This document shows positions 3,722-46,352 of a DNA stretch of 64,000 nucleotides, piece by piece. Position 1 is the stretch's first letter, and each line of letters begins with the position of its first letter. The notes beneath the pieces were generated by a model. The model was not told the origin of the DNA. It ran no database searches and saw nothing but the letters and a program-made list of their open reading frames with translations. The position numbers and the translations under genes are program-made. Source of the DNA: a virus (taxonomy: Duplodnaviria > Heunggongvirae > Uroviricota > Caudoviricetes); the IMG/VR virus record IMGVR_UViG_3300020061_000005. One strand, 5' to 3'.

Positions 3722-4009
3722 ATGAAATTTCTGATAGCCATCACATCCGTGGATCTGCTGGCGCTTCCAGGTCAAATCGTGGTGCGCGGGGACATGTACG
3801 ACAGCGCTGGCGCCACGATCAATGGATATGGGCAAGTGGCGATCAGCGATCTGAAGGTAACAGAACAGTTGGTGGCTGCTGTCGTGGAGGGCCTCAGCGC
3901 AAGCTGGTCTGCCTACCCGGTATTGCCGACTGACGAATTCTTCGTCACAGGGCAGCAGTACGTGGATTTTGACGGCCCACTGGTTCGCGGGCTTGTGCGC
4001 GCGCCATAA
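3722..4009 (+). CDS. Hypothetical small protein (95 aa)
   Basis: ATG preceded by a GGAG RBS. It is internal to the longer track ORF 3560..4009. Confidence 0.45.
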   Translation: MKFLIAITSVDLLALPGQIVVRGDMYDSAGATINGYGQVAISDLKVTEQLVAAVVEGLSASWSAYPVLPTDEFFVTGQQYVDFDGPLVRGLVRAP

Positions 4010-4026: not shown

Positions 4027-5424
4027 ATGGCCAATGTCTACAAGATCGGCAGCAACATCATCCGCCTCGCTGGAGGGGGCGGATCTGTCTTTGGCACGCC
4101 ATCAGGCACCTTCCCGCTCTCGATCAGTGGCCGGCACCTGCAGACTGCCTCTGGTAGCCCCTTCCTGCTGATTGGCGATGCGCTGTGGTCTCTGGAAGTA
4201 CAGGCGAGCTTGGCGCAGATCACCACCATCCTCACGAACCGCGCGGCCAAGGGCTACACCTGCTTCGTGATGGAGGCGTTCGAGCGGCTGTACAGCGACT
4301 CCACGCCGCCGTGGGCGAACGTCAACGGCAACATCCCCTTCACCACGACCAATAACTCCGGCTCGATGACCTGGACGGCCCACACCGAAGCGTATTGGGT
4401 CTTCCTTGATCACATCGTGAACACGGCTAAGGCGCTAGGGATGGCGGTGATCATCAATCCCGCGTACGCCGGTTACGCTGGCACGGCCAGCACCGATGGT
4501 TGGATGACCGCCATGAATGCCGCCTCGGATGCTGACCTGCAGAGCCACGGCGTCTTCCTCGCCAATCGCTACACGCAGGGCAATGTCATCTGGTGCGAGG
4601 GTGGGGATTACGCAGGCGATGCTGGCGTGACGACGCCTGGGGCCGAGCGCGACAAGATGTGGCAGATCATCCTGGGCATTCGCTCGGTGCGCACCACGGA
4701 TCTGGTGACCGGCCACACCGCGCGCAGCGGCAACACCGGGGCGACCACCGATGGCGATGCGTATGTCGCGTGGAGCACCTACACCGGCTTCAACCTGCCG
4801 AACATCTACGGCAAGTCCGATGCGACGGATACCTATTCGCTCGCTGCGACGGCCTACGCGCGCGGTCTGCCGTTCTTCATGATCGAAGGACCGTACGAGA
4901 ACGATGCCAGCAACAACACCTCGGAGTTCATGCGCAAGGCCATGTGGCAGGCCATGCTCTCGGGTAGCTGCGGTGCGCTGGGCGGCAACTGGCCGCGCTG
5001 GGCGGTTGGCGCAACAGCCGCCGATGGTGCGGGCGTGGCCGACTGCATCACCAATCACCTCAATACGCAGGGCGACACCGACTGCAGCAGCATGGTCGCG
5101 CTGTTATCGTCCTATAACTGGTCGGGGCTGGTGCCGAAGACCGATACCAGCCTGATCACCACGAGTCTGGGGAGCGCCGCTTCGCGCATCTGCGGTGCGC
5201 TCATCGGCAGTTCGGCTGCGCTGATCTACACCCCGGCTGGCGGGTTCACCGTGGCGATGACCGTGTTTGCGCAAGGCAGCGTCCGTGCGCGCTGGTTCGA
5301 CCCGATGGATGGCTCCTTCGCCAACGTATCCGGCCAACCCTTCGCGAACACTGGTACACACGCCTTCACCACCACCGGCAACAACTCAGGCGGTCGGACC
5401 GACTGGGTTCTGGTACTCGACTAA
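4027..5424 (+). CDS. Putative glycoside hydrolase, GH140/DUF4038-like (tail-associated depolymerase candidate)
   Basis: N-terminal SGRHLQTASGSPFLLIGDALW resembles the DUF4038/GH140 'dGkPFfwlgDTaW' opening. 465 aa. Confidence 0.45.
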   Translation: MANVYKIGSNIIRLAGGGGSVFGTPSGTFPLSISGRHLQTASGSPFLLIGDALWSLEVQASLAQITTILTNRAAKGYTCFVMEAFERLYSDSTPPWANVNGNIPFTTTNNSGSMTWTAHTEAYWVFLDHIVNTAKALGMAVIINPAYAGYAGTASTDGWMTAMNAASDADLQSHGVFLANRYTQGNVIWCEGGDYAGDAGVTTPGAERDKMWQIILGIRSVRTTDLVTGHTARSGNTGATTDGDAYVAWSTYTGFNLPNIYGKSDATDTYSLAATAYARGLPFFMIEGPYENDASNNTSEFMRKAMWQAMLSGSCGALGGNWPRWAVGATAADGAGVADCITNHLNTQGDTDCSSMVALLSSYNWSGLVPKTDTSLITTSLGSAASRICGALIGSSAALIYTPAGGFTVAMTVFAQGSVRARWFDPMDGSFANVSGQPFANTGTHAFTTTGNNSGGRTDWVLVLD

Positions 5425-6599
5425 TGGCTGGAATCTGGAAACGTAGCGGCAACATCCTCGTACCACCAGGTGGCGGCGGACTGTGGACGCCACCTGCTGG
5501 CGGCGGCGGTGGCGGCACGTATTCGCATGGCGATGATGTGGTGCTGACAGATCCATCCATCAGCGGCTCGGCCTGGGCGCAAGCGTTTGCCGGCGGCGCA
5601 CAGGGACCGATTGAGACCACCACGGTGGGACAGATTCCGGCCAATACGCTGGGTGGTGTGAACCCGCAGTCGGCAGCTACCAACCCGACTGATGGACCAG
5701 CCACGACGAACAACTCATGGTCCTGGCGCCGCTTCTCCCAACGACCGATCGTTGCCAACGATGCGACCCGCGGCAAAGTCATTGGTGGTGCTTACAGCGG
5801 CTTCGGCTCCAATCCCGATGTGGCGATGGAGTACCGCTTCCCTGGAACAATCGCCAATGGCGGCAGGGTCTACACCAGCTTCAGGACGAAGGTTAGTTAC
5901 TCCCCTGGCAGCGCTGGCCAACACAAGATCTTGCGCCTGTGTGGTGGTAGTGAGTCGGCCATAGAGGACACGCTGACTAACTTCGTGTTCTCGAACCAAC
6001 AATTCAACGGCTCGGTGTCCATGTTGGCTAACACGGCGAACAGCGGCACCAATCAGCAGACCTGGTACAACACCGACGTTTCTCAGTGGGACGATACGAA
6101 TACCGTGTGGCAGTTCACGGAATTGTTCCTGCAGATGTCCTCTGGCACCGGCGTGCGCGATGGCCAGATCTTCATCCGCAATTTCACCGGCGGCAGTGTC
6201 CCAACGCCAGCGAATCCATCGGCCTTCGACGGCAATGGCAATCCGCTCGCCAACAACCTGAACAGCCAGTGGCTCTCCAGGCCATCGAACAACAGCAGCG
6301 CGTTGATGATGTCGTTCCTCTGGGAGAACTATGTCGGCAACTCCTGGACGGCGGCGAATCTCTTTCAGGATGACTACTACGTAAACACGAGCGACTGGCG
6401 CCGGCTGCAATTATGGAATACTGCCAGCGCAGCAACCGCAACCGTACGCGAAGCTCAGGAGCTGAAGTCACTCGGATCAGGCACGCTGACGTTCCGACTC
6501 AACGAAGGCGGCTTGGCACCAGGGGACTACTACGCAACCCTGCTGGGCAACACCGCTTCGGACTCGATCGTCTACCAAGAACTCATCACGTTGGTGTGA
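5424..6599 (+). CDS. Hypothetical virion protein, Gly-rich N-terminus (fibre-like)
   Basis: ATG overlaps the upstream stop (TAATG). GGGG runs in the N-terminal region. Confidence 0.5.
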   Translation: MAGIWKRSGNILVPPGGGGLWTPPAGGGGGGTYSHGDDVVLTDPSISGSAWAQAFAGGAQGPIETTTVGQIPANTLGGVNPQSAATNPTDGPATTNNSWSWRRFSQRPIVANDATRGKVIGGAYSGFGSNPDVAMEYRFPGTIANGGRVYTSFRTKVSYSPGSAGQHKILRLCGGSESAIEDTLTNFVFSNQQFNGSVSMLANTANSGTNQQTWYNTDVSQWDDTNTVWQFTELFLQMSSGTGVRDGQIFIRNFTGGSVPTPANPSAFDGNGNPLANNLNSQWLSRPSNNSSALMMSFLWENYVGNSWTAANLFQDDYYVNTSDWRRLQLWNTASAATATVREAQELKSLGSGTLTFRLNEGGLAPGDYYATLLGNTASDSIVYQELITLV

Positions 6600-6600
6600 T

Positions 6601-7194
6601 ATGGCACTTCCGGCACAAGACAACATGACCGGCACGGAGGGGCAGGGCCTCGCTGTGTACAACCCCAATTGGACGATTGGGCTGGGTGGTTTCACGATCG
6701 ATCAGTTCCCCACGCAGGCGTTGGGGCCGAATGATGCTGCTGACAGCTATGCATGGTGGAACGCAGACGTTTTCCCGAACAGTCAGTACGCGCAATGCCT
6801 CATGCAAGCGCTCGCGGCGGCAGATGCATGGATCGGTGTGGCGGTTCGCTGCAGCCCTGGCGGAAATTTTGTCTTTGCCTACTCCGACAACGTGAACGCA
6901 TACTTCGGCAAGTTCGTGGCTGGGGTGGAGACGCTGTTCCCAGCATCGCCGTTGGCGCCGTGGGCACCAGGGGACGTCCCGCGGTTGGAGTCAGTCGGCA
7001 CACTCATGACGCTCAAGCTGAACGGCGGAACGATCGCCACCGCTACCGCCGCTGATGCAGCCCTGGCTACTGGCGCTGGTGGTGTGTCTGGCTACGGTAA
7101 TCTGTACAGCGCGAACAACATCCGCCTCTGGGAAGCCGGATCTCTTGGCGGCGGCGGAAGCGGTGGCGGACCAATTGCATGGCTCAGGGCTTAA
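6601..7194 (+). CDS. Hypothetical protein
   Basis: ORF immediately downstream with a GGGGSGGG C-terminal tail. Confidence 0.45.
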   Translation: MALPAQDNMTGTEGQGLAVYNPNWTIGLGGFTIDQFPTQALGPNDAADSYAWWNADVFPNSQYAQCLMQALAAADAWIGVAVRCSPGGNFVFAYSDNVNAYFGKFVAGVETLFPASPLAPWAPGDVPRLESVGTLMTLKLNGGTIATATAADAALATGAGGVSGYGNLYSANNIRLWEAGSLGGGGSGGGPIAWLRA

Positions 7195-7206
7195 ACACAG
7201 GCACGT

Positions 7207-7941
7207 ATGAAACCACAGCTCGTTAACTTCGATGGCGGCCAGCACAACGCGGACCTGCCGAAATCCTCGCAACGCATCCTGGAGGGCGGCTCCTGGAAGA
7301 AGCAGCGAGTGATTGTCCTGTTGCCATCGGCGGCGACGATTCCAACGAAGGTAGCCTTCTCGCATTGGTCCCTCGCCTTTCCACCGAACCAGTCGGTGCA
7401 TAGGATGCTCGCACTCGGCATGGAGGTCGGGGATGCGTACAGCAACGCGATTGCGGAGATCATTGCGCACCCGGATCTGAGCCAGTGGGAATACATCCTC
7501 ACGATCGAGGCGGATAATTGCCCGCCAGGGGATGGTCTGGTGAAGCTGATCAAGCAGATGGAAGCGCATCCGGAGTTCGCCTGCATCGGCGGGCTCTACT
7601 GGTGCAAGGGGCCGGATGGGTGCCCGCACATTTGGGGTGATGTGAAAGATCCGCAGCTGAACTATCGACCGCAGGTGCCGATCCCAAACCAACTGGTGGA
7701 GTGCGTGGGCACCTCGATGGGATTCAACCTGTGGCGAATGTCGATGTTCAAGGACGCACGGTTACGTCGACCGTGGTTCGCCACGCTCGATGGCTCAGAG
7801 GGCAAGGGCATCGGCACGCAGGATCTGTATGCGTGGTCTGACTTTAGAAAATACGGCTATCGCTGCGCGGTCGACTGCGGGGTGCTGGTGGGGCACTACG
7901 ATCATGAAGGAAAGTTCGGCTTGCCGGACACAATGTGGTAA
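7207..7941 (+). CDS. Putative GT-A fold glycosyltransferase
   Basis: An acidic EAD/DxD-like motif sits in EYILTIEADNCPPGDGLV. Overall layout resembles family-2-like glycosyltransferases. Confidence 0.4.
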   Translation: MKPQLVNFDGGQHNADLPKSSQRILEGGSWKKQRVIVLLPSAATIPTKVAFSHWSLAFPPNQSVHRMLALGMEVGDAYSNAIAEIIAHPDLSQWEYILTIEADNCPPGDGLVKLIKQMEAHPEFACIGGLYWCKGPDGCPHIWGDVKDPQLNYRPQVPIPNQLVECVGTSMGFNLWRMSMFKDARLRRPWFATLDGSEGKGIGTQDLYAWSDFRKYGYRCAVDCGVLVGHYDHEGKFGLPDTMW

Positions 7942-7955
7942 CCAAAGAGGTACGT

Positions 7956-8957
7956 ATGAAGATACTCGTCACAGGCGGCGCCGGATTTATCGGCCATCAT
8001 TTCGTGGAAGCTTTGCTTAAGCACACGGATTACGACATCACGCTTGTCGATCGGCTGGACAGCTCCGGGAACCTGAATCGCCTGGCCGAGATCGGCGCAG
8101 CGAAGAACAAGCGTGTGCGCTTCGTCTACCACGACCTGCGAGCGCCGCTGAACGATCAGCTCTGTGCACAGATCGGTGCCCACGAGCACATCGTGCACCT
8201 GGCGGCCGGCACGCATGTCGATCGCAGCATCGAGAACCCGATGGAATTCGTGCTCGATAACGTCGTGGCCACCACCAACATGCTCGACTTCGCACGCAAG
8301 GTGGGTTGCGCGAAGTTCATCAACTTCTCCACCGATGAGGTATTCGGTCCGGCGCCCAAGGGCGTTGCGTACAAGGAGGATGACCGCTACAACGCTGGCA
8401 ACCCCTACGCTGCCACCAAGGCCGGTGCGGCGCAGCTCGGTGTCGCCTACCACAACACGTACGGCCTGCCTGTGATCACGACCCACACGATGAACGTGGT
8501 TGGCGAGCGCCAGCATCCAGAAAAGTTTGTACCGATGGTGATCGCGAAGGTGCAGGCCGGGGATCTGGTGACCATCCATGCGGATGCGAAGCGCTCAACC
8601 CCTGGATCGCGCTTCTACATCCATGCGCGCAACGTCGCCTCTGCGGTGCTGTTTCTGCTGGATGGCGGCAGACCGGGTGAGAAGTACAACATCGTGGGCG
8701 AGCGCGAGGTGAACAACCTGGAGCTGGCGCAGATCATCGCAGGCTACATCGGCAAGGATCTGATCGCGGAGCTGGTGGACTTCCATTCCAGCCGGCCAGG
8801 CCACGACCTGCGCTATGCGCTCGATGGCAGCAAGCTCAAAAAGCTCGGCTGGGTGCCGGACAGCTCGATCGATCAGGGCATCAAGGAAATCGTGCAGTGG
8901 ACGCTAGAAAATCCGCATTGGCTGGTGACGCTCCCAGCGACGAAGGTGGCAGCATGA
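7956..8957 (+). CDS. NAD-dependent epimerase/dehydratase, dTDP-glucose 4,6-dehydratase (RfbB)-like
   Basis: GGAGFIGHHF Rossmann motif, STDEVFG, and YAATKAGAAQLGVAYHNTYGLPVITT (YxxxK). AAGAGG RBS before the ATG at 7956. Confidence 0.75.
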   Translation: MKILVTGGAGFIGHHFVEALLKHTDYDITLVDRLDSSGNLNRLAEIGAAKNKRVRFVYHDLRAPLNDQLCAQIGAHEHIVHLAAGTHVDRSIENPMEFVLDNVVATTNMLDFARKVGCAKFINFSTDEVFGPAPKGVAYKEDDRYNAGNPYAATKAGAAQLGVAYHNTYGLPVITTHTMNVVGERQHPEKFVPMVIAKVQAGDLVTIHADAKRSTPGSRFYIHARNVASAVLFLLDGGRPGEKYNIVGEREVNNLELAQIIAGYIGKDLIAELVDFHSSRPGHDLRYALDGSKLKKLGWVPDSSIDQGIKEIVQWTLENPHWLVTLPATKVAA

Positions 8958-9631
8958 GCACCGTAGCAGAGTCGGTGAGCACCGCGATAAACACGCCGAT
9001 CAAGCTCGATATCGGTTGCGGCAAGAACAAGAAGGAAGGCTTCATCGGAATCGACATCTACGACTTTCCCGGTGTGGATATCGTGGCGGACGTACGACGC
9101 AAAACGTGGCTGGCCACACAAGTGCCGGAGGAGCTGAAGGCGCGGATGATCGAAGATGACGGCGAGGATGAGCCGAATGAGTTGGAGGTCATCGCCTGGC
9201 GCTTCCCGGACAACTCGGTGGACGAAGCTCACGCCAGTCACTTCCTGGAGCACCTGACCAACTTCGGCGACAAGTGGGAGCGAGTGAACTTCTTCAACGA
9301 GCTGTACCGCATCCTGAAGCTCGGCGCGCAGGCGTCGCTGATCTTCCCGCATTGGGCATCGAATCGTTACTACGGCGATCCGACGCACAAGGAGCCATTC
9401 AGCGAGATGGGCTTCTACTACTTGAAGCGCGAGTGGCGGCTGGACCAGGGCAACGCACCGCACTCCGACAGCAGCGTGAATCCCAACGGCTACTCCTGCG
9501 ATTTCGAGGCCACCTGGTCGTACACGCTGCACCCTGGGCTTGCCAACCGGCACGTCGAAACGCAGCAGTTCGCCATCACCTGGGGCAAGGAAGCGGTCCA
9601 GGATATCGTGGCGACACTCACGAAGAGGTGA
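8956..9631 (+). CDS. Class I SAM-dependent methyltransferase
   Basis: LDIGCGKNKKEGFIGIDI (motif I). ATGA overlap with the upstream stop. Confidence 0.65.
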
Positions 9632-9634
9632 TCC

Positions 9635-10411
9635 ATGTCATTTCAGCTCGACGCCTTCCAGAGCGGTGCCTTCCAGGGCCCGTATGTGATCCCTGTAACT
9701 GCCGGCATCATCACCGGTATTTACAGCCAGTTCACGCTGGAGATCGCCGAGCTGTTCGAGGAAGCCTTCGAGCGAGCGCAGCTCTCCCCGATGGCGATCG
9801 GCCAGGAGCACATCAATTCCGCGATGCGCTCGGTGAAGTTCCTGCTCTCGGAGTGGCAGACTTGTGGACTGCGCGATCTGGCCATGAAAAACGGCACCGA
9901 AACGTTGGTGAGCGGCACCAACACCTGGACCATGCCGGTAGGTGCGGTTGACATCTTCGATGCGGTGCTGCACCGGGATGGTAACGACACGCCGATGTAT
10001 CGCATGGCGCGCAAGGAGTACCTGGAGATTGCCACCAAGGTGCAGCGTGGCCGGCCGGATCGCTACTTCGTTGATCGTAAGTACAACCAGAACGTGGTCT
10101 ACCTGTGGCCAACGCCTGAGAATTCGACCGACCAGATCGTGTACGAGTACATGCGCTCGCTCTCCGATCCCGGCCGGCCAGCGAACATCCTGGAGCTGCC
10201 ACCGCACATGCTTGAAGCCTTCGTGGCTGGCCTGGCGATGAAGATCTCGCAGAAATACTCGCGGGACGTTTACCCAGACTTGCGCGTTGACTACGGCGGC
10301 CCGCGCTACCCAGAGGCCATGGGCGGCAAGATTCAGCTTGCTCGCATGGAGAACGGTGAGCGCGCGGACGTGATGTTCTCCTTCGGCTACTCGCGCAGGT
10401 ACGGTCGATGA
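9635..10411 (+). CDS. Hypothetical protein
   Basis: GAGGTG RBS. 258 aa with high GC3. Confidence 0.5.
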   Translation: MSFQLDAFQSGAFQGPYVIPVTAGIITGIYSQFTLEIAELFEEAFERAQLSPMAIGQEHINSAMRSVKFLLSEWQTCGLRDLAMKNGTETLVSGTNTWTMPVGAVDIFDAVLHRDGNDTPMYRMARKEYLEIATKVQRGRPDRYFVDRKYNQNVVYLWPTPENSTDQIVYEYMRSLSDPGRPANILELPPHMLEAFVAGLAMKISQKYSRDVYPDLRVDYGGPRYPEAMGGKIQLARMENGERADVMFSFGYSRRYGR

Positions 10412-10755
10412 GTGTATTCGGTCACCTGTTTCCAATCGCTATCAAGAGGGCTATTTTCATGCTTCACAATGCACAACCACGATTCGCTTACGACTCGGAA
10501 GACGACACGATTCTCGACTACGCCACCAGCAAGTCCTACCCGGCCACCGGGAAGATCGACCTGGTGGATGGCGAGTGGGACCTGGACCTGCTGAAAGACC
10601 TGCTGAAGAAGCAGTTGCCGATCTTCGGCGCCTGGAGCGGTGCGCGCGACAAGGTGGAAACTTCCAACGCGCATTTCATCAACGACAATGATCCACCGCC
10701 GTTCAGTGAGCCGGTGAGCGGCCATAGCACCTCGCCCACAGGGCCAACGGAGTGA
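10408..10755 (+). CDS. Hypothetical protein
   Basis: ATGA-coupled ORF. Confidence 0.45.
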   Translation: MSVFGHLFPIAIKRAIFMLHNAQPRFAYDSEDDTILDYATSKSYPATGKIDLVDGEWDLDLLKDLLKKQLPIFGAWSGARDKVETSNAHFINDNDPPPFSEPVSGHSTSPTGPTE

Positions 10756-10758
10756 TCC

Positions 10759-11274
10759 GTGACCGTTGGACGCGAATATGCCCGCGGCACGATGGCGTGG
10801 GCGATCTGCCAGCGGTGCGGCCTGCGCCTGCTGTTGGGAGATTCCGTGTTCGATGGTCGTTTCGCCTGGCTCATAGTGCACCCGGAGTGCTATGAGCCAG
10901 TTCATCCGCAGGAGCGGCTGATCTCGGTATTCGATCCGGTTACGCTGTATCGACCTTCCCCTGAGTCGGACAACACCGTCTCCCCGGTGCTGGACATCCC
11001 GATCGTCACGCCTCCGGTCATCTCACTCACCTGGTCTTCGGCCTTCACCCTGGGCGCCAGGATCGAGGGATACCGGGTAATGCGGTCCACGGACGGCGAG
11101 ACGTATACTCTGGTGGTCGATCTGCCCATCGTCAGGACGTTCCTGGGTGAAATCACCTCCGAACCACTGGCGTACGACGACACTCCAGCGGCCGGCAGCT
11201 ATCTCTACGCAATCGATGCGTACGATTGCTACCAGCACACGCTGCGATCCAATCTTGTGAGCGCAACGGTGTGA
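10759..11274 (+). CDS. Hypothetical protein with FN3-like segment
   Basis: GTG start after a GGAG RBS. C-terminal GYRVMRSTDGETYTLVV is FN3-like. Confidence 0.45.
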   Translation: MTVGREYARGTMAWAICQRCGLRLLLGDSVFDGRFAWLIVHPECYEPVHPQERLISVFDPVTLYRPSPESDNTVSPVLDIPIVTPPVISLTWSSAFTLGARIEGYRVMRSTDGETYTLVVDLPIVRTFLGEITSEPLAYDDTPAAGSYLYAIDAYDCYQHTLRSNLVSATV

Positions 11275-11275
11275 C

Positions 11276-11935
11276 ATGTCCGCATTCACTTATGCCGAGC
11301 TGGTAGCCGCGCTGCAGTCCTGGCCGGAGGATGACGCGAGCGAGTACAACGACGCGCTGCCGCGGATCATTTCTCTGGGTGAGACCCGGCTGATCGTTGA
11401 CTTGAACTTCGAGATCTTCGATCTCACCGATCCCACCATCGTCGTCACTGGCAACAACCAGGTGATCGCCAAGCCTGCTGACCTGATCGTGGGGCGCTCG
11501 CTGTGGCTGCTCACTGGCGGGATTCGCTCCGCGATCGTGCAGCGCTCACGCGACTTCTGCCTGAATTACTGGCCCGATGACAGCGCGCTGGGTGTGCCGA
11601 AGTATTTCTACGATGTGGACGATGCTACTTGGCGGATCGTTCCCACGCCGAACCAGAGTGGCAACGTGGTAGCCACCTACGTCGCGCGTCCCCCTGGTCT
11701 CTCGGTGAGCAACCCCGCGACCTGGCTCTCCACCTACTGCGGGGATCTGCTGTTCTGCTGCTGCCTGATGGAAGCGGAGCAATGGATCAAGGCGGATGAT
11801 CGCTACGGCGACATGAAAACGAAGTACACCACGGAGCTGCTGCCTTCGCGCCGCGCCGAGATGCGCAACCTGATCCGCAACGGCGACTACAACCCTTGGA
11901 AGCCCGCCGCACAGAGGTTAACCGCCAATGGCTGA
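11276..11935 (+). CDS. Hypothetical virion protein
   Basis: ORF coupled to its neighbours. Confidence 0.45.
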   Translation: MSAFTYAELVAALQSWPEDDASEYNDALPRIISLGETRLIVDLNFEIFDLTDPTIVVTGNNQVIAKPADLIVGRSLWLLTGGIRSAIVQRSRDFCLNYWPDDSALGVPKYFYDVDDATWRIVPTPNQSGNVVATYVARPPGLSVSNPATWLSTYCGDLLFCCCLMEAEQWIKADDRYGDMKTKYTTELLPSRRAEMRNLIRNGDYNPWKPAAQRLTANG

Positions 11936-13532
11936 TACATTCTCGTCCTGGCTGAAGGCACGGCTGATCCAGACCGGCGCCTACAACAACACCTGGGGCG
12001 CGGTGCTCAACGCCGACGCCCTGAACATGCTCGATGATGCTATCGCTGGCCGTTCAGATATCACGCTCACCGGGCTCACCTACTCGCTGCCTGCACTCGG
12101 CAACGGCACAGATTCTGACTCGCGCGCTGCGATCCTGCGCTTCATCGGCTCCCCGGCCGGTGCGGTGGATGTGACGGTGCCTGGCGGGGTGACGAGCAAG
12201 CTCTACGCGATCGATAACCAGTCCGGGCAGACGGTCACCATCAAGTATTCTGGCTCGGTCGTGACCGCGGCGATTGCCACCGGCGTGCGCGCCCTGGTGC
12301 TGTGCGATGGCACCAACACCTACCTCTTTGGCGGCGGTGTCACCAACGCGGACACGCTCGGGGGCATTGCGGCCGCAAACTACGCGCGTCGCGATATCGC
12401 CAACACCTTCCTCAAGACCAACAACTACCCCTGGATCACGGTGGTGGAAGATCCGACCACGACGGTCGATGCAGCGCTCGGCAATCACCAGCGGCTGATC
12501 CTGACCGGGGATCGCAACATGGCCACACCGATCAATCCGGTGGATGGCCAGCAGCTCGTGATCCAGGTGGTCCAGGATGCGGTGGGCGGGCGGACGCTCA
12601 ACTGGAGCACGGCCTTTCTCTTCCAGAATGGCCTGCAGCCATCGCTTTCCACCGTCGCCAATGCGGTTGACTTGTTCCTGTGTTTCTACGATGCGTCGAC
12701 CACGAAGTGGATCGTTGCCCAAGCCGGTAGCATCTCCGCGGCGACGGGTGCGAGCTACAACATCACCCTGAGTGCCAACCAGTGCGATGTGAGCCTGGCG
12801 GCTCTCCTGGGCAGCGTGCCGGTGGCTTCTGTCGTGAACCTGGTGATCGCGCAGGGCTGCGTGCTGCAGGCGCTATCCGCGGGCTCCTACGCGCTGGATC
12901 TGTCGAACATCCTCCCGGTGGGTTCGACGCTGAATCTGACCAACCTGGGCTACATCCTGGCGCACGGCGGGGATGGTGGGATCGGCGGGCGGCTGCACAG
13001 CTCGAACTCCAATTCCGTGGTGGTCATCGACGGCGCTGGCAGCGGTTCAGCCGGCGGCGCGGCCATGCGAGCGCCAGGCGCTGGCATCACCTTCAACATC
13101 GTCAACGCGGATGGCCATATCTGGGGCGGTGGTGGCGGCGGTGGCGGTGGCGGCGTGGCATCGACCGGCGGCGGTGGCGGCAAGGCAGCGCAAGGCGGCG
13201 CGGGCGGCGGCGGCGCGGGCGGCGGCCAGGGCGGCTATGGCTTCGGCAACAACTCGACCCCTGGCAGTAAGGGCGCCGATGGTTCGACGGGTGTTAACGG
13301 CACCTTTGGCGCCGGCCAGGCGGGGCACATTGAAAGCGCTGGTAGCGCCGGAGTTGGTGGGTCTGGTGGAACCTGGGGCGCCGCGGGCGCATCCGGTGGC
13401 GCTGTGAGCAGCACCAACAACGGCATCCAGGGCGCTGGAGGCGCGGCTGGCAAGGCCATCGAATTGGCCGGTGGTACCGCGACCTTCGTCTCTGGTAGCG
13501 GCTCGCCGAATGTGATCGGAGCCGTTAGCTGA
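11928..13532 (+). CDS. Tail fibre-like protein with Gly-rich C-terminal region
   Basis: 534 aa. The C-terminal third is GGGGGGGG / GxGGxG rich. Confidence 0.5.
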   Translation: MADTFSSWLKARLIQTGAYNNTWGAVLNADALNMLDDAIAGRSDITLTGLTYSLPALGNGTDSDSRAAILRFIGSPAGAVDVTVPGGVTSKLYAIDNQSGQTVTIKYSGSVVTAAIATGVRALVLCDGTNTYLFGGGVTNADTLGGIAAANYARRDIANTFLKTNNYPWITVVEDPTTTVDAALGNHQRLILTGDRNMATPINPVDGQQLVIQVVQDAVGGRTLNWSTAFLFQNGLQPSLSTVANAVDLFLCFYDASTTKWIVAQAGSISAATGASYNITLSANQCDVSLAALLGSVPVASVVNLVIAQGCVLQALSAGSYALDLSNILPVGSTLNLTNLGYILAHGGDGGIGGRLHSSNSNSVVVIDGAGSGSAGGAAMRAPGAGITFNIVNADGHIWGGGGGGGGGGVASTGGGGGKAAQGGAGGGGAGGGQGGYGFGNNSTPGSKGADGSTGVNGTFGAGQAGHIESAGSAGVGGSGGTWGAAGASGGAVSSTNNGIQGAGGAAGKAIELAGGTATFVSGSGSPNVIGAVS

Positions 13533-15892
13533 TGGCTGGCCAGCGCCAAGCGAAAGACACTGACCTGATCCTCCAGCCAGGCGTTGTCACCAATCTCACG
13601 GACCGCGATGCACGCGGTCGATGGAAGGACTCCAACCGCATCCGTTGGCACAAGGGTTTGCCAGAGAAGCTCGGCGGCTGGGTGCGCCAGCTCCTCACAG
13701 GTGCAAACAATGGTATCTACATTGGCGTGGCCCGCGCGCTGCACGATTGGTCATCGCTCGACACGCAGCAGTGGATCAGCATCGGCACTAACTGCAAGCT
13801 GTATCTCATCAACAACGGCACGCTGTTCGATATCACGCCGCTGCGCAAAGCCTCGAACACGACGAACAGCCTCTCCGTCACGATGGGCTCGCCGATCATC
13901 ACGGTTACCGATATCGACCATCGAGCAAGCGATGGCGATCACGTCAACATCACCGCCTCCTTGCCGATCGGCGGCTTCGTGGTGAGCGGCACCTTCGATA
14001 TTGCCTCGATCATCGACCCGGATACTTACACGGTCACCTTCACCTCAAACTTCTCCAATAACGAAGTGGGTGGCGGAGATGTGACGATCGAGTACGACAT
14101 CTCCTGTGGCCTGGAGGAGAACGGCGAACTGCTGGGCTACGGCACCGGTGAATACGGCATGGGCACCTTCGGCACGCCGCGCCCGGTGGGCTCAGGCGTT
14201 CCAGCGCGCGCGCGTACCTGGTCACTCGACAATTGGGGCGAGGATCTGGTCTCCTCGTATTCCGATGGCGAGTTCTTCTGGTGGGACAAGACCACCGGGC
14301 CGAACTCGCGCGCGGTGCTGATCCCAGAGGCTCCGACTGATATCCAGCGGATGCTGGTGAACCCGGAGAATCGGCACGCCATTGCGATTGGCTGCTCGGG
14401 GCTGGATGGCGTGGCCGATCCGATGCTCATTCGCTGGTGCTCGCAGGGCGACTTCAGCGACTGGATTCCCACCAAGGAGAACACCGCGGGGGATAAGCGC
14501 CTGGATTACGGCTCGCGCATGATCACCGGCATCAAGAGCCGCTCGCAGAATTACCTGTGGTCCGACACGCAGATGTACACGATGCAGTACGTCGGGCCGG
14601 ACTTCATCTTCGTGTTCGACCCCAAGGGCGCCTGCAAGATCGTCGGGCCGAACGCCGCGGTGGACGTGAACGGCACCGCCTATTTCATGGCCTTCGATGA
14701 CTTCTTTATCTACGACGGCACGCTGCGCGTCATGGATTGCGATGTGCACACCCGGATCTTCGGGGACGAGGATCGCAACGTCGAAGGGGACTTCGATCGC
14801 ACGCAGGCCACCACGGTCTATTGCGCAAGCTACATGCCGAAGAACGAGGTGACCTGGTACTACCTGGCCACCACCGGGGTGATCCGCTACGTCACCTACA
14901 ACTATGCGGTGAACTGCTGGTATTACGGGGCAATGCAGCGCACCGCGTTCCATGATGTGTCCGAAGCCATCACCGGTTACAAGACCAACCCTTACGGGGT
15001 GAACGGTGGCTACCTCTACAAGCACGAAGCTGGCACCGATGAGATCGAGGGCGAAGAGATCAATCCGCAAGACTGGTTCCTGGAGTCCTACGACAACAAC
15101 GTGGGCGGCTCGGATGCAGTGATGTTGATCAACCGCATTATCCCGAACTTCGATCGACTGTCAGGCTCGATGCGGATGCTGCTGCGCAAGAAGTCCAAGC
15201 CGCGTCAGGCGCTGTACCAGGAACGCGGTCCGTATCTGATTGAGGAGGACACATTGGAGTTGGGCGTGCGCTGCAAGGCGTCGCAGATCGCGCTGCGCCT
15301 GTATAGCAACCAAGAGCTGGGAGAGGACTTCCGCATGGGCGTCTTCCAGGTGCAGGCAACCCCGTACGGCGGACGGGTAGGCAATGAGACCGGTGTCGCT
15401 CCTTCGCCCCCCGGTCCGGTGGTGCTGGCCGCTGAGTGGTTCGGTCCCGATGCCCCGCCAGCCCTGCCAGTGATTCTGGATGCTGCACTGTTGAACTATG
15501 CCGGAGTCATCCCTTATTACGGTTACAACACCATTCACGGGACGAGCGATCCTTACATGGCGGCCAATTGGGGTGATTTCAGTGAGACAGAAGTCCTGGA
15601 TATTTACACCCTTATTTCTCTGGTCTACGCGCCCGACACGGACCAGGGGATGTACTTCGCACTGCAGGGCGCCACGCTGCCGCCGAATGATGCGTTTGTC
15701 TCGCTTTCGTGGACGGATGATGGTGATGTTGAGCGTACGCTGCTTGCGACGGATGCAACTATTTTGCTGATCGATGGCGGCGTCGGTGCTGGCGTGGTTA
15801 AGGTGTGGAGATGGCAAAACGCCACGGGGAATTGGCCTTTCCCGACGAATGCGGGCTTCACTGAAAACAGCTATGAGATAACGATAGCCTGA
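13532..15892 (+). CDS. Large virion structural protein (786 aa)
   Basis: Size and position fit a tail tubular or baseplate-type protein. No enzymatic motif seen. Confidence 0.5.
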   Translation: MAGQRQAKDTDLILQPGVVTNLTDRDARGRWKDSNRIRWHKGLPEKLGGWVRQLLTGANNGIYIGVARALHDWSSLDTQQWISIGTNCKLYLINNGTLFDITPLRKASNTTNSLSVTMGSPIITVTDIDHRASDGDHVNITASLPIGGFVVSGTFDIASIIDPDTYTVTFTSNFSNNEVGGGDVTIEYDISCGLEENGELLGYGTGEYGMGTFGTPRPVGSGVPARARTWSLDNWGEDLVSSYSDGEFFWWDKTTGPNSRAVLIPEAPTDIQRMLVNPENRHAIAIGCSGLDGVADPMLIRWCSQGDFSDWIPTKENTAGDKRLDYGSRMITGIKSRSQNYLWSDTQMYTMQYVGPDFIFVFDPKGACKIVGPNAAVDVNGTAYFMAFDDFFIYDGTLRVMDCDVHTRIFGDEDRNVEGDFDRTQATTVYCASYMPKNEVTWYYLATTGVIRYVTYNYAVNCWYYGAMQRTAFHDVSEAITGYKTNPYGVNGGYLYKHEAGTDEIEGEEINPQDWFLESYDNNVGGSDAVMLINRIIPNFDRLSGSMRMLLRKKSKPRQALYQERGPYLIEEDTLELGVRCKASQIALRLYSNQELGEDFRMGVFQVQATPYGGRVGNETGVAPSPPGPVVLAAEWFGPDAPPALPVILDAALLNYAGVIPYYGYNTIHGTSDPYMAANWGDFSETEVLDIYTLISLVYAPDTDQGMYFALQGATLPPNDAFVSLSWTDDGDVERTLLATDATILLIDGGVGAGVVKVWRWQNATGNWPFPTNAGFTENSYEITIA

Positions 15893-15909
15893 GCCATGGA
15901 CACATCACC

Positions 15910-16605
15910 ATGAATTTACCAGAGGACACGCTGTCGATCGCCACAGGAACTCCGGTTGTTGGCAACAACATCGATGTGGACCTGACACTGGATGGTGCTG
16001 CGGTGTCAGGTGGGGTCGCATCCTTCGCCGTGTCTGTGCAACTGATCTTCACCATCGACGTGCTCGATGCTGGCGGCGGCGGGCAGATCGGTACCTTCCA
16101 CATCACTGGCGAACTCGACGGCAATCTAGTGACTGAGGACGTCTCGTTCACGAACGACAATACGTTCGGTCAAACCTGTCAGTCGATCAATAGCTACGAC
16201 AGTGTTTCGCTGATCAACTTCACCATGATGAGCGGCCCTGACGCGCTGCTTCGCGCTGGCAACTTGGCGGGCGGCAGCGCGCAAGGGGAATTTATTGACC
16301 TGAGCTGGACGGAGGCGACTGCTGGCACTTTCCCGATTGCGCAATACCGCCTTTTCCGCGGTGTGAATGGTGGGGCCATGTCGCTGCTGACGACAGTAGC
16401 GGCAGAATCTCCGCGCGTGTATACGGACATGGATGTGATCGGGGACCTCAACACCTATGCCTATGAAGTTATTGTGCGCGACACGAGCGGCTTGGATTCA
16501 GTGCCTTCGAATGTGGTGATCCTGCCGTTCTTCCGTATCGCTGAAGACGGGCGGGCGCGCGAGATCGAGCAGAACATTGATCGTCGAATAGTCGAGGAAC
16601 TGTAA
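15910..16605 (+). CDS. Hypothetical protein with FN3-like segment
   Basis: The second ATG is used, because the first ATG hits a stop after 5 codons. LSWTEATAGTFPIAQYRLFRG is FN3-like. Confidence 0.45.
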   Translation: MNLPEDTLSIATGTPVVGNNIDVDLTLDGAAVSGGVASFAVSVQLIFTIDVLDAGGGGQIGTFHITGELDGNLVTEDVSFTNDNTFGQTCQSINSYDSVSLINFTMMSGPDALLRAGNLAGGSAQGEFIDLSWTEATAGTFPIAQYRLFRGVNGGAMSLLTTVAAESPRVYTDMDVIGDLNTYAYEVIVRDTSGLDSVPSNVVILPFFRIAEDGRAREIEQNIDRRIVEEL

Positions 16606-17277
16606 ATGGCCAACGTAAAGATCACTGAGATGCCAAACGCCACACTGCCGCTCGCCGGCACCGAGCCGCTGGAGGTGGTGCAGGGCGGTCAAAGCAGGCA
16701 GGCACCCGCATCCGCCTTTGGCGGCGGCGGTGACGTGGTGGTCCTGGCGACCGACTTCAACACGAATTTCAAGGCAGCAAACGACACAGCAACGAGTGTC
16801 CTTTTGGAATACACCATCCCAGCCGGAACGCTGATCGGGGTGCGGTTGCTGGAGGTAGAGTCTTGGTACAAATACACCAATGTGCTCTTCGTTGGCGGCA
16901 CCACTCCACGATGGGAACTGACGAGTCGAGTCGATAGCACGGAGCTTTTTGATCAAGTCATGCCGGCCAACGCGCCTACTGATACTTTCTGGTTTGGTGG
17001 TGGCTATTTGCGATTGAACCTGCGTTTTCAGGCATTCAATGCTCCAGACGCGCAGCGCAACACCTTCGTGCTCGATGAGATGCTCCTTTATCAGACCGTG
17101 GGTGCTTTCGCGCTCACCAGGCCAATTCAATTCAATAGTGGCCAGTTATCGCTAAACGAATCTGCATTCGACATGACCGGTGATCGCGTGTTGCAGATTA
17201 GAGCGAAGGGCAATCAAGGCGCCGGGACTTCTCTGCTGACGCACCACTACACGCGCATGATGAGATACGGCGCGTGA
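16606..17277 (+). CDS. Hypothetical virion protein
   Basis: ORF. Confidence 0.45.
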   Translation: MANVKITEMPNATLPLAGTEPLEVVQGGQSRQAPASAFGGGGDVVVLATDFNTNFKAANDTATSVLLEYTIPAGTLIGVRLLEVESWYKYTNVLFVGGTTPRWELTSRVDSTELFDQVMPANAPTDTFWFGGGYLRLNLRFQAFNAPDAQRNTFVLDEMLLYQTVGAFALTRPIQFNSGQLSLNESAFDMTGDRVLQIRAKGNQGAGTSLLTHHYTRMMRYGA

Positions 17278-17816
17278 TCGCAATCACCATCCCGAGCGAT
17301 GACCACGTGAAGGCTGGGTTTGCGATGTGCTTGGCGGATCTGTGCGCGTACTCCGCTCTGAATGGCATCCAGTATTGGCGGCAGAATCCGCGCAGCAGCA
17401 GCATCGTGGCGAGCCGCTGTCATGGGGTACACACAGCGGTGGATATTGGTGCTTCGCATATCCTGTGGCTGGACTCAGACCTAGAATTCCCCGCCGACAC
17501 GCTGGAACGCTTTCTTGCGCATGACGTGCCAATCGTCGGGGCGACCTATCGCGGTCGGCGCATCCCGTTCGATGATTTGGCGGTCAACACGCAAAATCCC
17601 AACGAAGCGCAGGCGCTGCCAGGCGGATGCTTGCTGGTGCGCACTGAGGTCTACGTTAAGTTGGGCCGCCCGTACTACCGCTCGCCGCAGACCGAAGATT
17701 ACCAGGTGGGCGAGGATTATGATTTCAGCCGGCGCGCGCATGATGCCGGTTACACCCTGCACATTGATCGCTCCATCCACCTGACGCATCTTGGCGAAGC
17801 GCGGCTGAATCTATGA
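17274..17816 (+). CDS. Putative glycosyltransferase (DxD)
   Basis: GTG start overlaps the upstream stop (GTGA). HILWLDSDLEFPADTLERF carries a DxD motif. Confidence 0.4.
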   Translation: MIAITIPSDDHVKAGFAMCLADLCAYSALNGIQYWRQNPRSSSIVASRCHGVHTAVDIGASHILWLDSDLEFPADTLERFLAHDVPIVGATYRGRRIPFDDLAVNTQNPNEAQALPGGCLLVRTEVYVKLGRPYYRSPQTEDYQVGEDYDFSRRAHDAGYTLHIDRSIHLTHLGEARLNL

Positions 17817-18091
17817 CCGTCCAACAGATCAAGCAGGTGGATATCCAGTTTCCGGAGGATGAGAAGCTGGCGCGGCTGGTGCAGTCGTTGCGTAGCACGC
17901 AGAGCGCGCTCAACGCGATCATCACGGCGAACAACGCAGCGCAGCTTCTGAAACCATCGTCAGATGCGACCAACGAGCTGGCGCCAGGGCAGTGGGAAGC
18001 GGTGGTGGTTGATGATGGGGTCGCGCCGGTGCTGAGAGTCCGCTATAACCGCGCGGGCTCCACATTCACCGCAGAGGTTCCCCTGGTATGA
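17813..18091 (+). CDS. Hypothetical protein
   Basis: ATGA-coupled ORF. Confidence 0.4.
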   Translation: MTVQQIKQVDIQFPEDEKLARLVQSLRSTQSALNAIITANNAAQLLKPSSDATNELAPGQWEAVVVDDGVAPVLRVRYNRAGSTFTAEVPLV

Positions 18092-18672
18092 ACATTTACT
18101 CCATCGTGGTCGATGACTTCCTGGCTGACTTCGAAGCGGCCCGCAAGTATGCGGACAGCGCGGTCTACAAGGATGTCGAGAATCCGGCCGATGGGGTGAT
18201 CTACCCGATGATCAGTCCGGATCTCGCACCCGGCATGGGCAGTGAGATCGCAATGAACCTGATGTTCATCATGGGCAAGCCGATCTACATGAACATGGCC
18301 TTCATGCGGCTCTCCCCGGCCGGGGTCTACGTGCCGCACCAGGCGCACACCGACAAGCTGATGGGCGAGTGGTCGATGATGCTGTACCTGAATAGGCCAG
18401 AGCATTGCTCCGGTGGCACCTCAGTGCTACGCCACGTCACTGGTATGGATCGGCACCCCACGCAGCCGGAGGATATCCAGATTTGGCGCGAGGACATGAA
18501 CGATGAATCGAAGTGGCAGATCACCGATTTCTGCCGTATGCAGACCAACCGGGCTTTCATCTTCCGCTCCGACCTGTTCCACCGAGCGGAGCCGGCTGGT
18601 GGCTTCGGCCGCGGGCCGCGCAATGGCCGGTTGGTCTGCACGGCGTTCTTCAACACCACGGAGCCAACATGA
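18088..18672 (+). CDS. Hypothetical protein, possible 2OG-Fe(II) oxygenase-like
   Basis: An HxD...H arrangement (HQAHTD ... LFHRAEP) with an RxS motif. Weak evidence. Confidence 0.3.
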   Translation: MNIYSIVVDDFLADFEAARKYADSAVYKDVENPADGVIYPMISPDLAPGMGSEIAMNLMFIMGKPIYMNMAFMRLSPAGVYVPHQAHTDKLMGEWSMMLYLNRPEHCSGGTSVLRHVTGMDRHPTQPEDIQIWREDMNDESKWQITDFCRMQTNRAFIFRSDLFHRAEPAGGFGRGPRNGRLVCTAFFNTTEPT

Positions 18673-19160
18673 TCGCCCGCCACGCGACACCGGCTGATAT
18701 CCCCCGGATCATCGAGATGGGGCGCCCCTTCTGGGAGCAAACCCTGTACCGGGACACACCGTACGACCCGGATTCGATGGATCACTTCTGCCGCGTCATG
18801 CTCGACATGAACATGCTGCTGGTGGCGGAATTCGACGGGAAGGTGGTCGGCGCGGTGGGTGGGGTGCTCTCCCCGCTGTATGCCAACATGGATGTCCTGG
18901 CGGGGGCGGAGCTATTCTGGTGGGTAGAAGAAGGGTATAGAGGCGGGGGTGCAGGTAAACTCCTGCTCCACGGAATCGAAGAGGCAGCGGCAAAGGCCGG
19001 TGTCACCTATTGGGCGATGATGGTCCTTGAGGGTGCTGGTGACCCCGAGCGCGCTGCTGCCATCTATCTCGCCAACGGCTATCAGCGGGCAGAGAGAACC
19101 TTCATGAAGAGGTTGTCATGGCCGCCATCACCGGAGCCGCAATCGCCGCCGCAGGCGTAG
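18669..19160 (+). CDS. GNAT family N-acetyltransferase
   Basis: Internal ATG with GGAG and ATGA coupling. YRGGGAGKLLL is motif A. 163 aa. Confidence 0.65.
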   Translation: MIARHATPADIPRIIEMGRPFWEQTLYRDTPYDPDSMDHFCRVMLDMNMLLVAEFDGKVVGAVGGVLSPLYANMDVLAGAELFWWVEEGYRGGGAGKLLLHGIEEAAAKAGVTYWAMMVLEGAGDPERAAAIYLANGYQRAERTFMKRLSWPPSPEPQSPPQA

Positions 19161-35314: not shown

Positions 35315-35863
35315 CTAGAAGGATGCACCGCGCCTGCCCCTCTTGATGGGAATCCGTTCCATATAATCCTGTAGCGCTTGAGAATTTCGCAGCGCTGCGT
35401 ACGCGCGAGCCAGATCACGAAGCACGGTGCGGTAAGTCAAATGATACTTATCGGCTATCTGCTTGTAGGTGAGCTTTTCGAAGGCGTGCTCCATCAACAG
35501 GTACGCCTGTCGCGGTGGAAGCGTCTCCAATGCCCGATACAACACCACCTCGAACTCCTCGGCTGAGAGAATGTCATCTGGCGTACCGCGCTCGATCTCA
35601 ATGTCCTCCAGTCCCTCATCATCATGTGGATGGGCGTTGCGGCTGCGCTCACGCCATTCATTCGCGACGTTGGCAGCGATGCGGAAGAGATAGCTCTGCG
35701 GGTTAGTGATCAGCACATCATCGCTGTAGCGCAGGACGCGAAGGAACACTTCTTGGGCAAGATCATCTATGTCGGCGGTGGGAATGGAGGAGCGAGTAGC
35801 GAGCCACCGTTTTATCGGGGCTTGCCACGTGGAGAACAGTGCAGCCAGGTTATTGGCCGGCAT
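35315..35863 (-). CDS. ECF-type sigma-70 family RNA polymerase sigma factor
   Basis: Region 2 is DDLAQEVFLRVLRY...YLFRIAANVANEWRER. Region 4 is LPPRQAYLLMEHAFEKLTYKQIADKYHLTYRTVLRDL. Start taken at the internal Met to avoid overlap with Lar. Confidence 0.7.
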   Translation of the reverse strand: MPANNLAALFSTWQAPIKRWLATRSSIPTADIDDLAQEVFLRVLRYSDDVLITNPQSYLFRIAANVANEWRERSRNAHPHDDEGLEDIEIERGTPDDILSAEEFEVVLYRALETLPPRQAYLLMEHAFEKLTYKQIADKYHLTYRTVLRDLARAYAALRNSQALQDYMERIPIKRGRRGASF

Positions 35864-46321: not shown

Positions 46322-46352
46322 GTGGCCGCACCTTGTTTCGTGTAGGTGGATT

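Follow-up and report, generated by a model that had tools for sequence, protein, structure and literature searches.

To our knowledge, and as far as a literature search showed, glycosylation of the phage particle has been demonstrated only for mycobacteriophages. The present analysis concerns a 64,000-nucleotide stretch of DNA from an uncultured, podovirus-like phage (IMG/VR virus record IMGVR_UViG_3300020061_000005), referred to at its full length as the window, in which a fibre of a family termed C0, a glycosyltransferase of 244 residues (GT244) and a methyltransferase (MT) form a module of comparable gene layout. In mycobacteriophage Corndog, an O-methyltransferase and glycosyltransferases (GTs) are encoded inside the structural operon (PMC4351075), and capsid and tail-tube subunits of mycobacteriophages bear glycans (Freeman et al. 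2023, as summarised in PMC12619734). Judged by analogy, mycobacteriophage virion glycosylation is the functionally closest known system. As far as these sources describe them, the systems of Corndog (Cluster O) and Che8 combine one or more soluble GTs with an O-methyltransferase within the virion structural operon, as does the window, the mycobacteriophage genes lying between head genes. The mycobacteriophage enzymes are described there as absent from the virion, with glycans seen on the virion proteins, whereas the system in the window is known from its genes alone. Likewise, the acceptors described are the C-termini of capsid or tail-tube subunits in siphoviruses of Actinobacteria, whereas the partner here is a Ser/Thr-rich fibre in uncultured podoviruses. 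The likeness is one of gene layout; the GT of the window belongs to no Pfam family, and the module is also found in chromosomes of bacteria of the candidate phyla radiation (CPR).

Giant viruses achieve something similar with Mimivirus R141/L780 and L230 and with chlorovirus PBCV-1 A064R, the last of which combines two rhamnosyltransferase domains with a methyltransferase domain. In these viruses, a virus-encoded nucleotide-sugar 4,6-dehydratase, GT-A transferases and a sugar methyltransferase decorate surface fibres or capsid in the cytoplasm, and structure matches of GT244 include Mimivirus R699 and PLOD-like GT domains of Megavirus and Moumouvirus. However, these matches are at the level of the fold, and giant viruses have eukaryotic hosts and much larger pathways. 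In bacteria, adhesins are paired with cytoplasmic GTs, as in AIDA-I/Aah, TibA/TibC, HMW1/HMW1C and the serine-rich repeat proteins with GtfAB. In such pairs, the gene of a repetitive surface fibre adjoins that of a soluble GT modifying the fibre before export or assembly, a layout also displayed by the CPR version of the module, yet the GTs are of other folds or families (GT-B, GT41, heptosyltransferases) and lack an obligate methyltransferase, so that the likeness is again one of layout. Interchangeable tailspikes with conserved N-terminal docking peptides, e.g., G7C gp63.1/gp66, CBA120 TSP1-4 and those of K1-5, resemble a variable slot of the window, where different glycan-degrading domains (GH140, GH5, beta-helix-like) stand behind a common short N-terminal peptide. 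Finally, the GtrA/GtrB/GtrC proteins responsible for serotype conversion by P22 and SfV are membrane proteins encoded beside the integrase of temperate phages. They share with the window a phage GT2-like transferase acting on surface sugar chemistry but differ in that the enzymes here are soluble and lie in a late structural block, with no integrase found among the ORFs scanned. What sets the module of the window apart from these systems is that it has a fibre as dedicated partner, a GT of an unclassified family and an obligate MT, that it is broadly distributed among uncultured podoviruses, and that a counterpart exists in CPR bacteria.

A sequence-only reading of the window had reported seven sugar-modifying genes scattered among the fibre and structural genes (Table 1). 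All seven open reading frames (ORFs) are real, lie on the + strand and fall within a 23-gene co-directional block with inter-gene gaps of -43 to +17 nt, although the start given for MT (8956) was out of frame, the true start being 8954. The impression of a loose scatter did not hold, as GT244 and MT are nearly always linked to one Ser/Thr-rich fibre gene; the first ORF of the window, missed in that reading, belongs to this fibre-GT-MT module. Related loci were sampled through GT244 homologues, which gave 80 loci from IMG/VR and 14 from genome and metagenome-assembled genome (MAG) assemblies, 94 in all. All ORFs of the 94 loci were compared, and the census was then repeated by tblastn with all cluster members. 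Downstream of GT244, an MT of the same family as that of the window appears within 2.5 kb in 78/78 evaluable loci. Upstream, the C-terminal domain of C0 is encoded on the same strand at a distance of up to 6 kb in 66/71 evaluable loci, with at least three of the five exceptions (L020, L031 and L080) carrying a diverged or short C0-like gene at the cluster level. C0 directly precedes the GT in 46 of the 79 loci with a called GT, and the median gap from C0 end to GT start is ~36 nt (30/56 gaps <100 nt). Given these frequencies, the short gaps and an order that does not change, the clustering of C0, GT244 and MT cannot be incidental. An RmlB-like gene directly follows the GT in 12/78 evaluable loci. 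One cluster, C11, looks like a spurious antisense ORF over MT and was discarded; the MT count became 78/78 after tblastn with MT sequences.

Table 1 Features of the window and its immediate surroundings.
Feature	Coordinates	Strand	Position, basis or remark
Major capsid protein	just upstream of the window		Before the fibre; then 227-aa and 107-aa proteins
C0 fibre (C-terminal 1,235 codons of a 1,423-aa protein, cut by the window edge)	1-3708	+	Follows the major capsid gene
Small protein, 95 aa	3722-4009	+	Immediately downstream of the fibre; gene call in L095-L097
GH140/apiosidase-like hydrolase with C-terminal Collagen_bind_2	4027-5424	+	Pfam, PDB
Variable-slot protein, 391 aa, N-terminal peptide MAGIWKRSGNILVPPGGGG	5424-6599	+	No Pfam, PHROG or NCBIfam match
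Variable protein, 197 aa	6601-7194	+	No Pfam, PHROG or NCBIfam match
GT244, predicted GT-A fold glycosyltransferase, 244 aa	7207-7941	+	AlphaFold2 model and Foldseek; most conserved gene of the module
RmlB-like NDP-hexose 4,6-dehydratase	7956-8957	+	Pfam, PDB, NCBIfam; optional cassette member
MT, class I SAM-dependent methyltransferase, 225 aa	8954-9631	+	Methyltransf_11, phrog_6636, PDB 3sm3
SU10-adaptor-like protein, two small proteins, second adaptor-like protein			Directly after MT
Fibre-like protein, 534 aa, Gly-rich C-terminal third	11928-13532	+	Beside the adaptor and nozzle genes, after the second adaptor-like protein
Nozzle protein, 786 aa, then two small proteins			After the 534-aa fibre
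GT180, shorter GT-A-like protein, 180 aa	17274-17816	+	Between tail genes and ejection-protein genes
92-aa protein			Between GT180 and the 2OG oxygenase
2OG-Fe(II) oxygenase (DUF6445, P4H-like)	18088-18672	+	Pfam
GNAT acetyltransferase	18669-19160	+	Pfam, PHROG
Ejection proteins and putative 2,934-aa internal protein			After GNAT

The triad occupies differing places in the structural modules. It follows the capsid gene in this phage and adaptor-like genes in L003, L012 and L081, whereas in L040 and L050 it is flanked by the portal gene on one side and the scaffold/capsid genes on the other, as read from the translated sequences; it therefore behaves as a mobile cassette. We propose that the left half of the region flagged by the sequence-only reading constitutes a conserved, transferable virion-surface module. 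A literature search returned no account of the C0-GT-MT triad, which is not proof of its absence. A larger glycan toolkit is seen at the GT244 homologue of a complete 42.6-kb Manatee Spring podovirus (MW202524.1, 3147-11978; L098), where three further annotated glycosyltransferases and two methyltransferases stand beside a 598-aa C0-like protein.

GT244 has no match among Pfam, PHROG or NCBIfam models, and sequence searches of GT244 and GT180 against the PDB returned noise only. The glycosyltransferase assignment made by the sequence-only reading was nevertheless borne out, albeit by structure prediction only. The AlphaFold2 model of GT244 (pLDDT 75.5, pTM 0.76) was compared using Foldseek, whose top-ranking matches in both databases, the PDB and BFVD, are without exception GT-A enzymes (probability 1.00, TM up to 0.58-0.67). 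The PDB matches include LH3 (5.7e-7), ColGalT1, Mimivirus R699, SpsA and hyaluronan synthase, those in BFVD being viral GT-A proteins, many from uncultured phages, and the matches remain at the fold level, with 9-22% identity. A GT-A fold is accepted for GT244 on the strength of this predicted model. In an alignment of 26 homologues, E101, D103, D206 and H230 are among the invariant residues. The segment E101-A-D103 follows the strand 96-100, at the end of strand 4, and because this E-x-D is invariant in the family, the metal-binding motif would be an ExD variant rather than the DxD first reported. In the PDB sequence search with its noise-level matches, D103 was placed opposite the second Asp of the SpsA segment TDDN. 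GT244 carries no transmembrane segment.

The GT244 family is large. It counts 4,956 metagenomic homologues at E <= 1e-3, i.e., ~5,000 clusters at 90% identity, the best 120 being 69-100% identical. At 50% clustering, these shrink to a few clusters and a remote tail (892 at E <= 1e-3, 100 at E <= 1e-30). The identity of GT244 stays at 62-85% even where the adaptor and nozzle proteins of the same loci match those of this phage at only 25-35%, and such conservation amid diverged structural proteins suggests a conserved acceptor and donor. A check of long homologues for Rosetta-stone fusions found only an intein: homologue P0222 (562 aa) carries an intein-like insertion with a LAGLIDADG domain just before a conserved WGD. 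A 543-aa 'fusion' GT in L022 was dismissed as an ORF-calling artefact, i.e., an out-of-frame upstream extension. An HNH-like gene (cluster C9, assigned by eye) stands beside the GT in several loci, after it in L017, L022, L031 and L034 and before it in L040. Selfish elements thus appear to target this very conserved gene.

The methyltransferase called by the sequence-only reading was upheld. MT carries motif I as LDIGCG (KLDIGCGKN) and matches Methyltransf_11 marginally above the cut-off (23.1 bits against 21.2, E 1.2e-4), phrog_6636 (5e-9) and PDB 3sm3 (1.4e-3). Methyltransf_11 is a generic model, and a match to it would fit substrates of many kinds rather than identify that of MT. The RmlB-like dehydratase was likewise confirmed. 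It matches GDP_Man_Dehyd (2.7e-54) and Epimerase (3e-48) in Pfam and dTDP-glucose 4,6-dehydratases in the PDB (2e-56), and its TGGAGFIG, STDEV and YAATK segments align with those of 6bi4, so that the NAD site GxxGxxG, the T-D-E and the YxxxK are all present. TIGR01181 is by far its best NCBIfam family, but the score (270.5 bits, E 1.7e-80) is below the equivalog cut-off of 365.1, and the nucleotide specificity was therefore left unassigned.

The window's first ORF is open from base 1, and the full C0 gene lies at 2231-6502 in L095; a 1,205-aa ORF listed from base 91 is a window-edge artefact. In C0 of this phage, Ser accounts for 17.7% of the residues, Gly for 15.6%, Thr and Ala for 11.2% each and Asn for 8.1%, against 0.1% for Lys and 0.4% for Glu, i.e., 29% Ser+Thr and almost no charge. 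Across the family, Ser+Thr make up 27% compared to 12% in the other proteins of the loci, and charged residues 4.3% compared to 20.8%. A repeat of the FSNSNGISFG type occurs 4.2 times per 1,000 residues in the family versus 0.005 in other locus proteins. An N-terminal RPSxWNSGH motif is found in 24 C0 members and nowhere else, in this phage outside the window. Members span 240 to >3,000 residues with varying repeat numbers and end in a conserved C-terminal beta-sandwich of ~200 residues, a tip resembling carbohydrate-binding modules (CBM). From these features, we take C0 to be a fibre on the virion surface whose tip is of a carbohydrate-binding type.

The order C0-like, GT (37-47% identical), MT also recurs in three CPR/Saccharimonadales MAG contigs (a chromosome of 829 kb and two shorter contigs, of 233 and 108 kb); a scan of genome contigs returned MAGs only and no cultured host. 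The flanking genes, read by eye from their N-termini as housekeeping genes, include FtsE/FtsX, pyruvate kinase, phosphoglycerate kinase, triose-phosphate isomerase, MurB and SecA. At these loci (L086, L091 and L094), the neighbours of the triad include signal-peptide proteins, and there are no capsid genes. The C0 homologue has an N-terminal membrane anchor in L086, L091 and the short MAG contig L089, and none in L094. C0 is thus the one protein that accompanies GT and MT in phages and cells alike, and its homologue is possibly a glycosylated cell-surface fibre in CPR bacteria.

These observations can be drawn together in a mechanism whose acceptor, sugar, methylation target and timing are conjectural. 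We would give an even chance to a cytoplasmic glycosylation of the fibre by a sugar that is methylated and possibly of the 6-deoxy type, with the GH140 protein as a candidate depolymerase. Late in infection, GT244 would take a sugar from a nucleotide sugar, either made by the host or boosted in supply by the phage, and attach it to the fibre while still in the cytoplasm, the acceptor in C0 most likely being the repeat region, and MT would then methylate the added sugar. In this phage, the RmlB-like dehydratase may supply NDP-4-keto-6-deoxyhexose, which host RmlC/RmlD could turn into a rhamnose-type donor. Supporting such a mechanism are the strict linkage of the triad, the soluble enzymes, the packing in a late operon, the extra GTs and MT in MW202524 and the mycobacteriophage precedent. 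In addition, a GT that is conserved while tips and glycanases vary favours a conserved acceptor over a variable host glycan. Of the three roles suggested by the sequence-only reading, decoration of virion proteins is therefore the best supported, by comparative gene-neighbourhood evidence only.

Several points weigh against fibre glycosylation. It is solely gene adjacency that suggests the link between GT and fibre, and all loci were ascertained via GT244, so the counts cover only C0 genes beside a GT. In pairwise comparisons, the GT has a median identity of 66.5%, MT one of 52% and the tip one of 32%, and pairwise identities of GT and MT are correlated (Spearman 0.56), those of GT and tip being not (-0.006). 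The tip was therefore dropped as acceptor, and any acceptor site would lie elsewhere in the fibre or in another protein, possibly another virion protein. NxS/T sequons in C0 are just mildly enriched (47 versus 32.6±4.3), C0 may be a head fibre or a tail fibre, and MT could act on protein instead of sugar. Furthermore, no RmlA, RmlC or RmlD was found among the ORFs scanned, and RmlB alone gives no finished donor.

A tentative, on balance doubtful, extension of fibre glycosylation would be that an undescribed and very widespread module, comprising a Pfam-less GT-A enzyme with a dedicated MT and sometimes a 4,6-dehydratase, coats a charge-free, Ser/Thr-rich fibre with methylated deoxy-sugars and is common to thousands of uncultured environmental podoviruses and the CPR/Saccharibacteria cell surface. 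If true, virion glycosylation would be frequent beyond the actinobacteriophages, and a cassette for a glycoprotein fibre would have been exchanged between phages and ultra-small bacteria. Even if the triad merely acts as its layout suggests, virion glycosylation would be widespread among uncultured podoviruses and would employ an unclassified GT-A family conserved enough to host an intein and attract homing endonucleases. The triad would then offer a cloneable three-gene system for tests of phage protein glycosylation in E. coli and point to a possibly glycosylated CPR surface fibre.

It is improbable, in our view, that GT244 and MT glycosylate another virion protein, such as the major capsid or a tail protein, the fibre gene being a mere neighbour in a mobile cassette. 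The cassette does adjoin the capsid gene here and portal, scaffold or capsid genes elsewhere, in the Manatee Spring podovirus MW202711 a single small gene separates the major capsid gene from a GT180 homologue downstream, and the missing co-variation of fibre tip and GT would fit an acceptor of this kind. The known precedent, as far as the cited accounts describe it, also modifies capsid and tail tube (PMC12619734, PMC4351075). However, capsid and other structural proteins vary strongly across the loci, leaving C0 as the only constant neighbour, and the CPR chromosomal loci carry C0, GT and MT with no capsid genes.

Equally improbable is that the enzymes alter a glycan of the host envelope, thereby masking receptors, excluding superinfection or reducing sticking to debris, and that they travel with fibre and glycanase as a host-range cassette. 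The CBM-like fibre tip and the glycanases in the slot would suit such a role, RmlB-type sugars are typical of O-antigens, and soluble phage-encoded GT-A enzymes acting on cell-wall polymers are known, e.g., prophage TarP of S. aureus. Yet a GT of this purpose should diversify with tip and glycanase, and it is instead the most conserved gene (66.5% versus 32%, with no correlation). The enzymes also sit in a tightly packed late structural block with no membrane components, their maximum 19-residue Kyte-Doolittle hydropathy being <1.6 throughout. Neither an integrase nor a Gtr-like protein was found among the scanned ORFs of the window that reach at least 300 aa; a further 13 kb of the contig extends beyond the window. 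O-antigen modification or serotype conversion, the second role put forward by the sequence-only reading, is accordingly unlikely for this window.

It is highly unlikely that the enzymes are auxiliary metabolic genes or morons with no common target that cluster incidentally: such genes are common in aquatic phages, and the oxygenase, GNAT and GT180 are poorly conserved in relatives, but the linkage of C0, GT244 and MT contradicts this, which confines it to 17274-19160. That the GTs and the oxygenase hypermodify phage DNA is scarcely credible, for although phage GTs often glycosylate DNA, as far as the source describes (bioRxiv 10.1101/2023.12.21.572611), a PurZ-like gene is present in the window and the oxygenase lies near GT180, the oxygenase matches DUF6445/P4H-type models with TET/JBP models not among its matches, MT matches the generic Methyltransf_11, the genes sit in the structural block far from the replication genes at ~37-46 kb, and the CPR triad stands among secreted proteins.

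Between fibre and GT, the window and its relatives display a variable slot. In many loci, three kinds of gene occupy it, encoding a small protein of 80-108 aa, a variable one of middle size and another variable one of ~210-310 aa, the last filling, in other loci, the position before the GT occupied here by 6601-7194. The 95-aa protein at 3722-4009 has no family match, and an 80-108-aa ORF stands at the same place in ~10 other loci, e.g., L004, L011, L016, L018, L019, L032, L042, L044, L049 and L060. The mid-sized protein is a GH140 in the window and L044, a GH5 cellulase-family protein in L051 and a CHB_HEX_C/Fn3_assoc protein in L041; that of L035 has no Pfam match and is read as beta-helix-like from its repeat pattern. 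In the window, the GH140/DUF4038-like call was well founded, with Apiosidase (2.1e-38, 133.1 bits against a cut-off of 26.5) and Collagen_bind_2 (7.4e-12, 45.4 bits against 22) above their Pfam cut-offs and a match to the apiosidase 8t9w in the PDB (5e-17, aligned over residues 34-465). Its GGD and P-YE-N segments align with 8t9w in a sequence alignment that assigns no catalytic roles to residues.

The N-terminal peptide of the GH140 protein, MANVYKIGSNIIRLAGGGG, resembles peptides of slot proteins elsewhere, including its 391-aa neighbour. Its general form, M-x-x-(I/V)-x-(M/L/K)-x-G-(G/S)-(N/K/R)-I-(L/V)...GG..F...GGG, recurs in many slot proteins that are otherwise unrelated, i.e., at 4027-4110 and 5424-5520 of the window and in L021, L034, L035, L041, L045, L051 and L067. 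The peptide may serve in the docking of exchangeable subunits, be they glycanases or binding proteins, and the GH140 and 391-aa proteins are probably interchangeable glycan-degrading or glycan-binding subunits that would dock on the virion. Unlike in the known tailspike systems, the motif is new to us, docking is presumed, and the GH140 of L044 is without the motif. The GH140 of the window is thus a candidate virion-associated glycan depolymerase, and the pattern of interchangeable subunits with a common peptide backs the third suggested role, a depolymerase with accessory enzymes, for this protein alone and not for the other enzymes. The slot may serve as a ready catalogue of candidate depolymerases.

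The second group of flagged genes, at 17274-19160, differs in its conservation. GT180 matches Glyco_trans_2_3 (2e-4, 21.7 bits < 27) and Anp1 (1.5e-3, 18.5 < 28.8) below the Pfam thresholds, and phrog_1574 at 6e-15. Its D67-S-D69 and GEDYDF are invariant in an alignment of three sequences, the only homologues in 5.8 billion proteins being three. By hhalign, DSD/GEDYDF fall position for position on EAD/GTQDLY of GT244 (E 0.0037, 166 columns), at low probability. GT180 is accepted as GT-A-like from these sub-threshold profile matches and the DSD motif, with less certainty than GT244, in keeping with the sequence-only reading. Among the loci, it is kept only in close relatives (L005), and more distant homologues occur in Manatee Spring podoviruses, where it is annotated as a glycosyltransferase, and in Synechococcus myoviruses.

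The 2-oxoglutarate (2OG) oxygenase and the GNAT acetyltransferase belong to the families named by the sequence-only reading, yet their proposed role in sugar modification found no support. The oxygenase matches DUF6445 (3.8e-8, 34 bits against 24) and, below threshold, 2OG-FeII_Oxy_3 (1.2e-5, 26.6 < 27), and AHTD ... FHR can be read as its HxD...H iron triad; it has no sequence relative in the PDB and three weak phage matches only. GNAT matches Acetyltransf_1 (1.5e-8, 35.3 bits against 20.7) and phrog_1249 (1.1e-20), with RGGGAG readable as acetyl-CoA motif. Neither is conserved in the related loci and no link to carbohydrate was found, so that within the window most first annotations hold and two of the seven genes are not demonstrably sugar-related. 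Possibly, GT180, the oxygenase and GNAT form a separate, poorly conserved set modifying other virion proteins. As the best structure matches of GT244 are LH3 and ColGalT1, a collagen-like, hydroxylation-dependent glycosylation is conceivable as pure speculation, but C0 is nearly devoid of lysine, which speaks against it.

The 534-aa protein near the adaptor genes, probably an ordinary tail fibre or adhesin, contains a short collagen-like run (GSK-GAD-GST-GVN-GTF-GAG). A precomputed table lists GP38 (T-even adhesin) and a weak Phage_phiTE_241_C for it, and a Pfam scan at E <= 0.01 gave no match. The adjacent 786-aa nozzle or 'stabilization' protein is ~30% identical (tblastn) to those of DSL-LC04, roseophages CRP-901/902, pelagiphages HTVC023P/027P and Planktothrix phages. 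A megablast of the region against GenBank phages returned no match.

The window has a GC content of 60%, and the same sequence is present on metagenomic contig ERZ27268014 k141_1606173 (76,925 bp); outside 1-21444, ORFs of <300 aa were only sampled in the scans. Every gene from base 1 to 30252 is carried on the + strand. Promoter-like and terminator-like sites are fewer in the window than in shuffled sequence, and scans of it for Rfam families, Y-RNA included, and for tRNAs gave nothing above threshold and no tRNA.

Other genes of the window fall outside the region discussed so far. After the ejection genes, the 2,934-aa protein (21448-30252, +) has an InPase domain (1.7e-50, residues 544-676), a PBECR5 nuclease-like match (3.5e-24) and DarB-like similarity, and by these features it is a predicted giant internal or ejected virion protein. 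A 375-aa adenylosuccinate-synthetase homologue at 39089-40216 (-) matches the PurZ-type phrog_1211 (2.1e-62) and Pfam Adenylsucc_synt (4e-45), and the phage may replace adenine by 2-aminoadenine in its DNA. A Ro60 homologue is encoded at 55102-56757 (+), with matches to TROVE (1.8e-39) and the Ro60 vWA domain (8.9e-51). Finally, the early/middle region encodes an extracytoplasmic function (ECF)-type sigma factor with sigma-70 regions 2 and 4, an SPFH/Band 7 protein and a RecT/RecE-like recombination pair, at 35315-35935 (-), 43021-43815 (-) and 44430-46411 (-).

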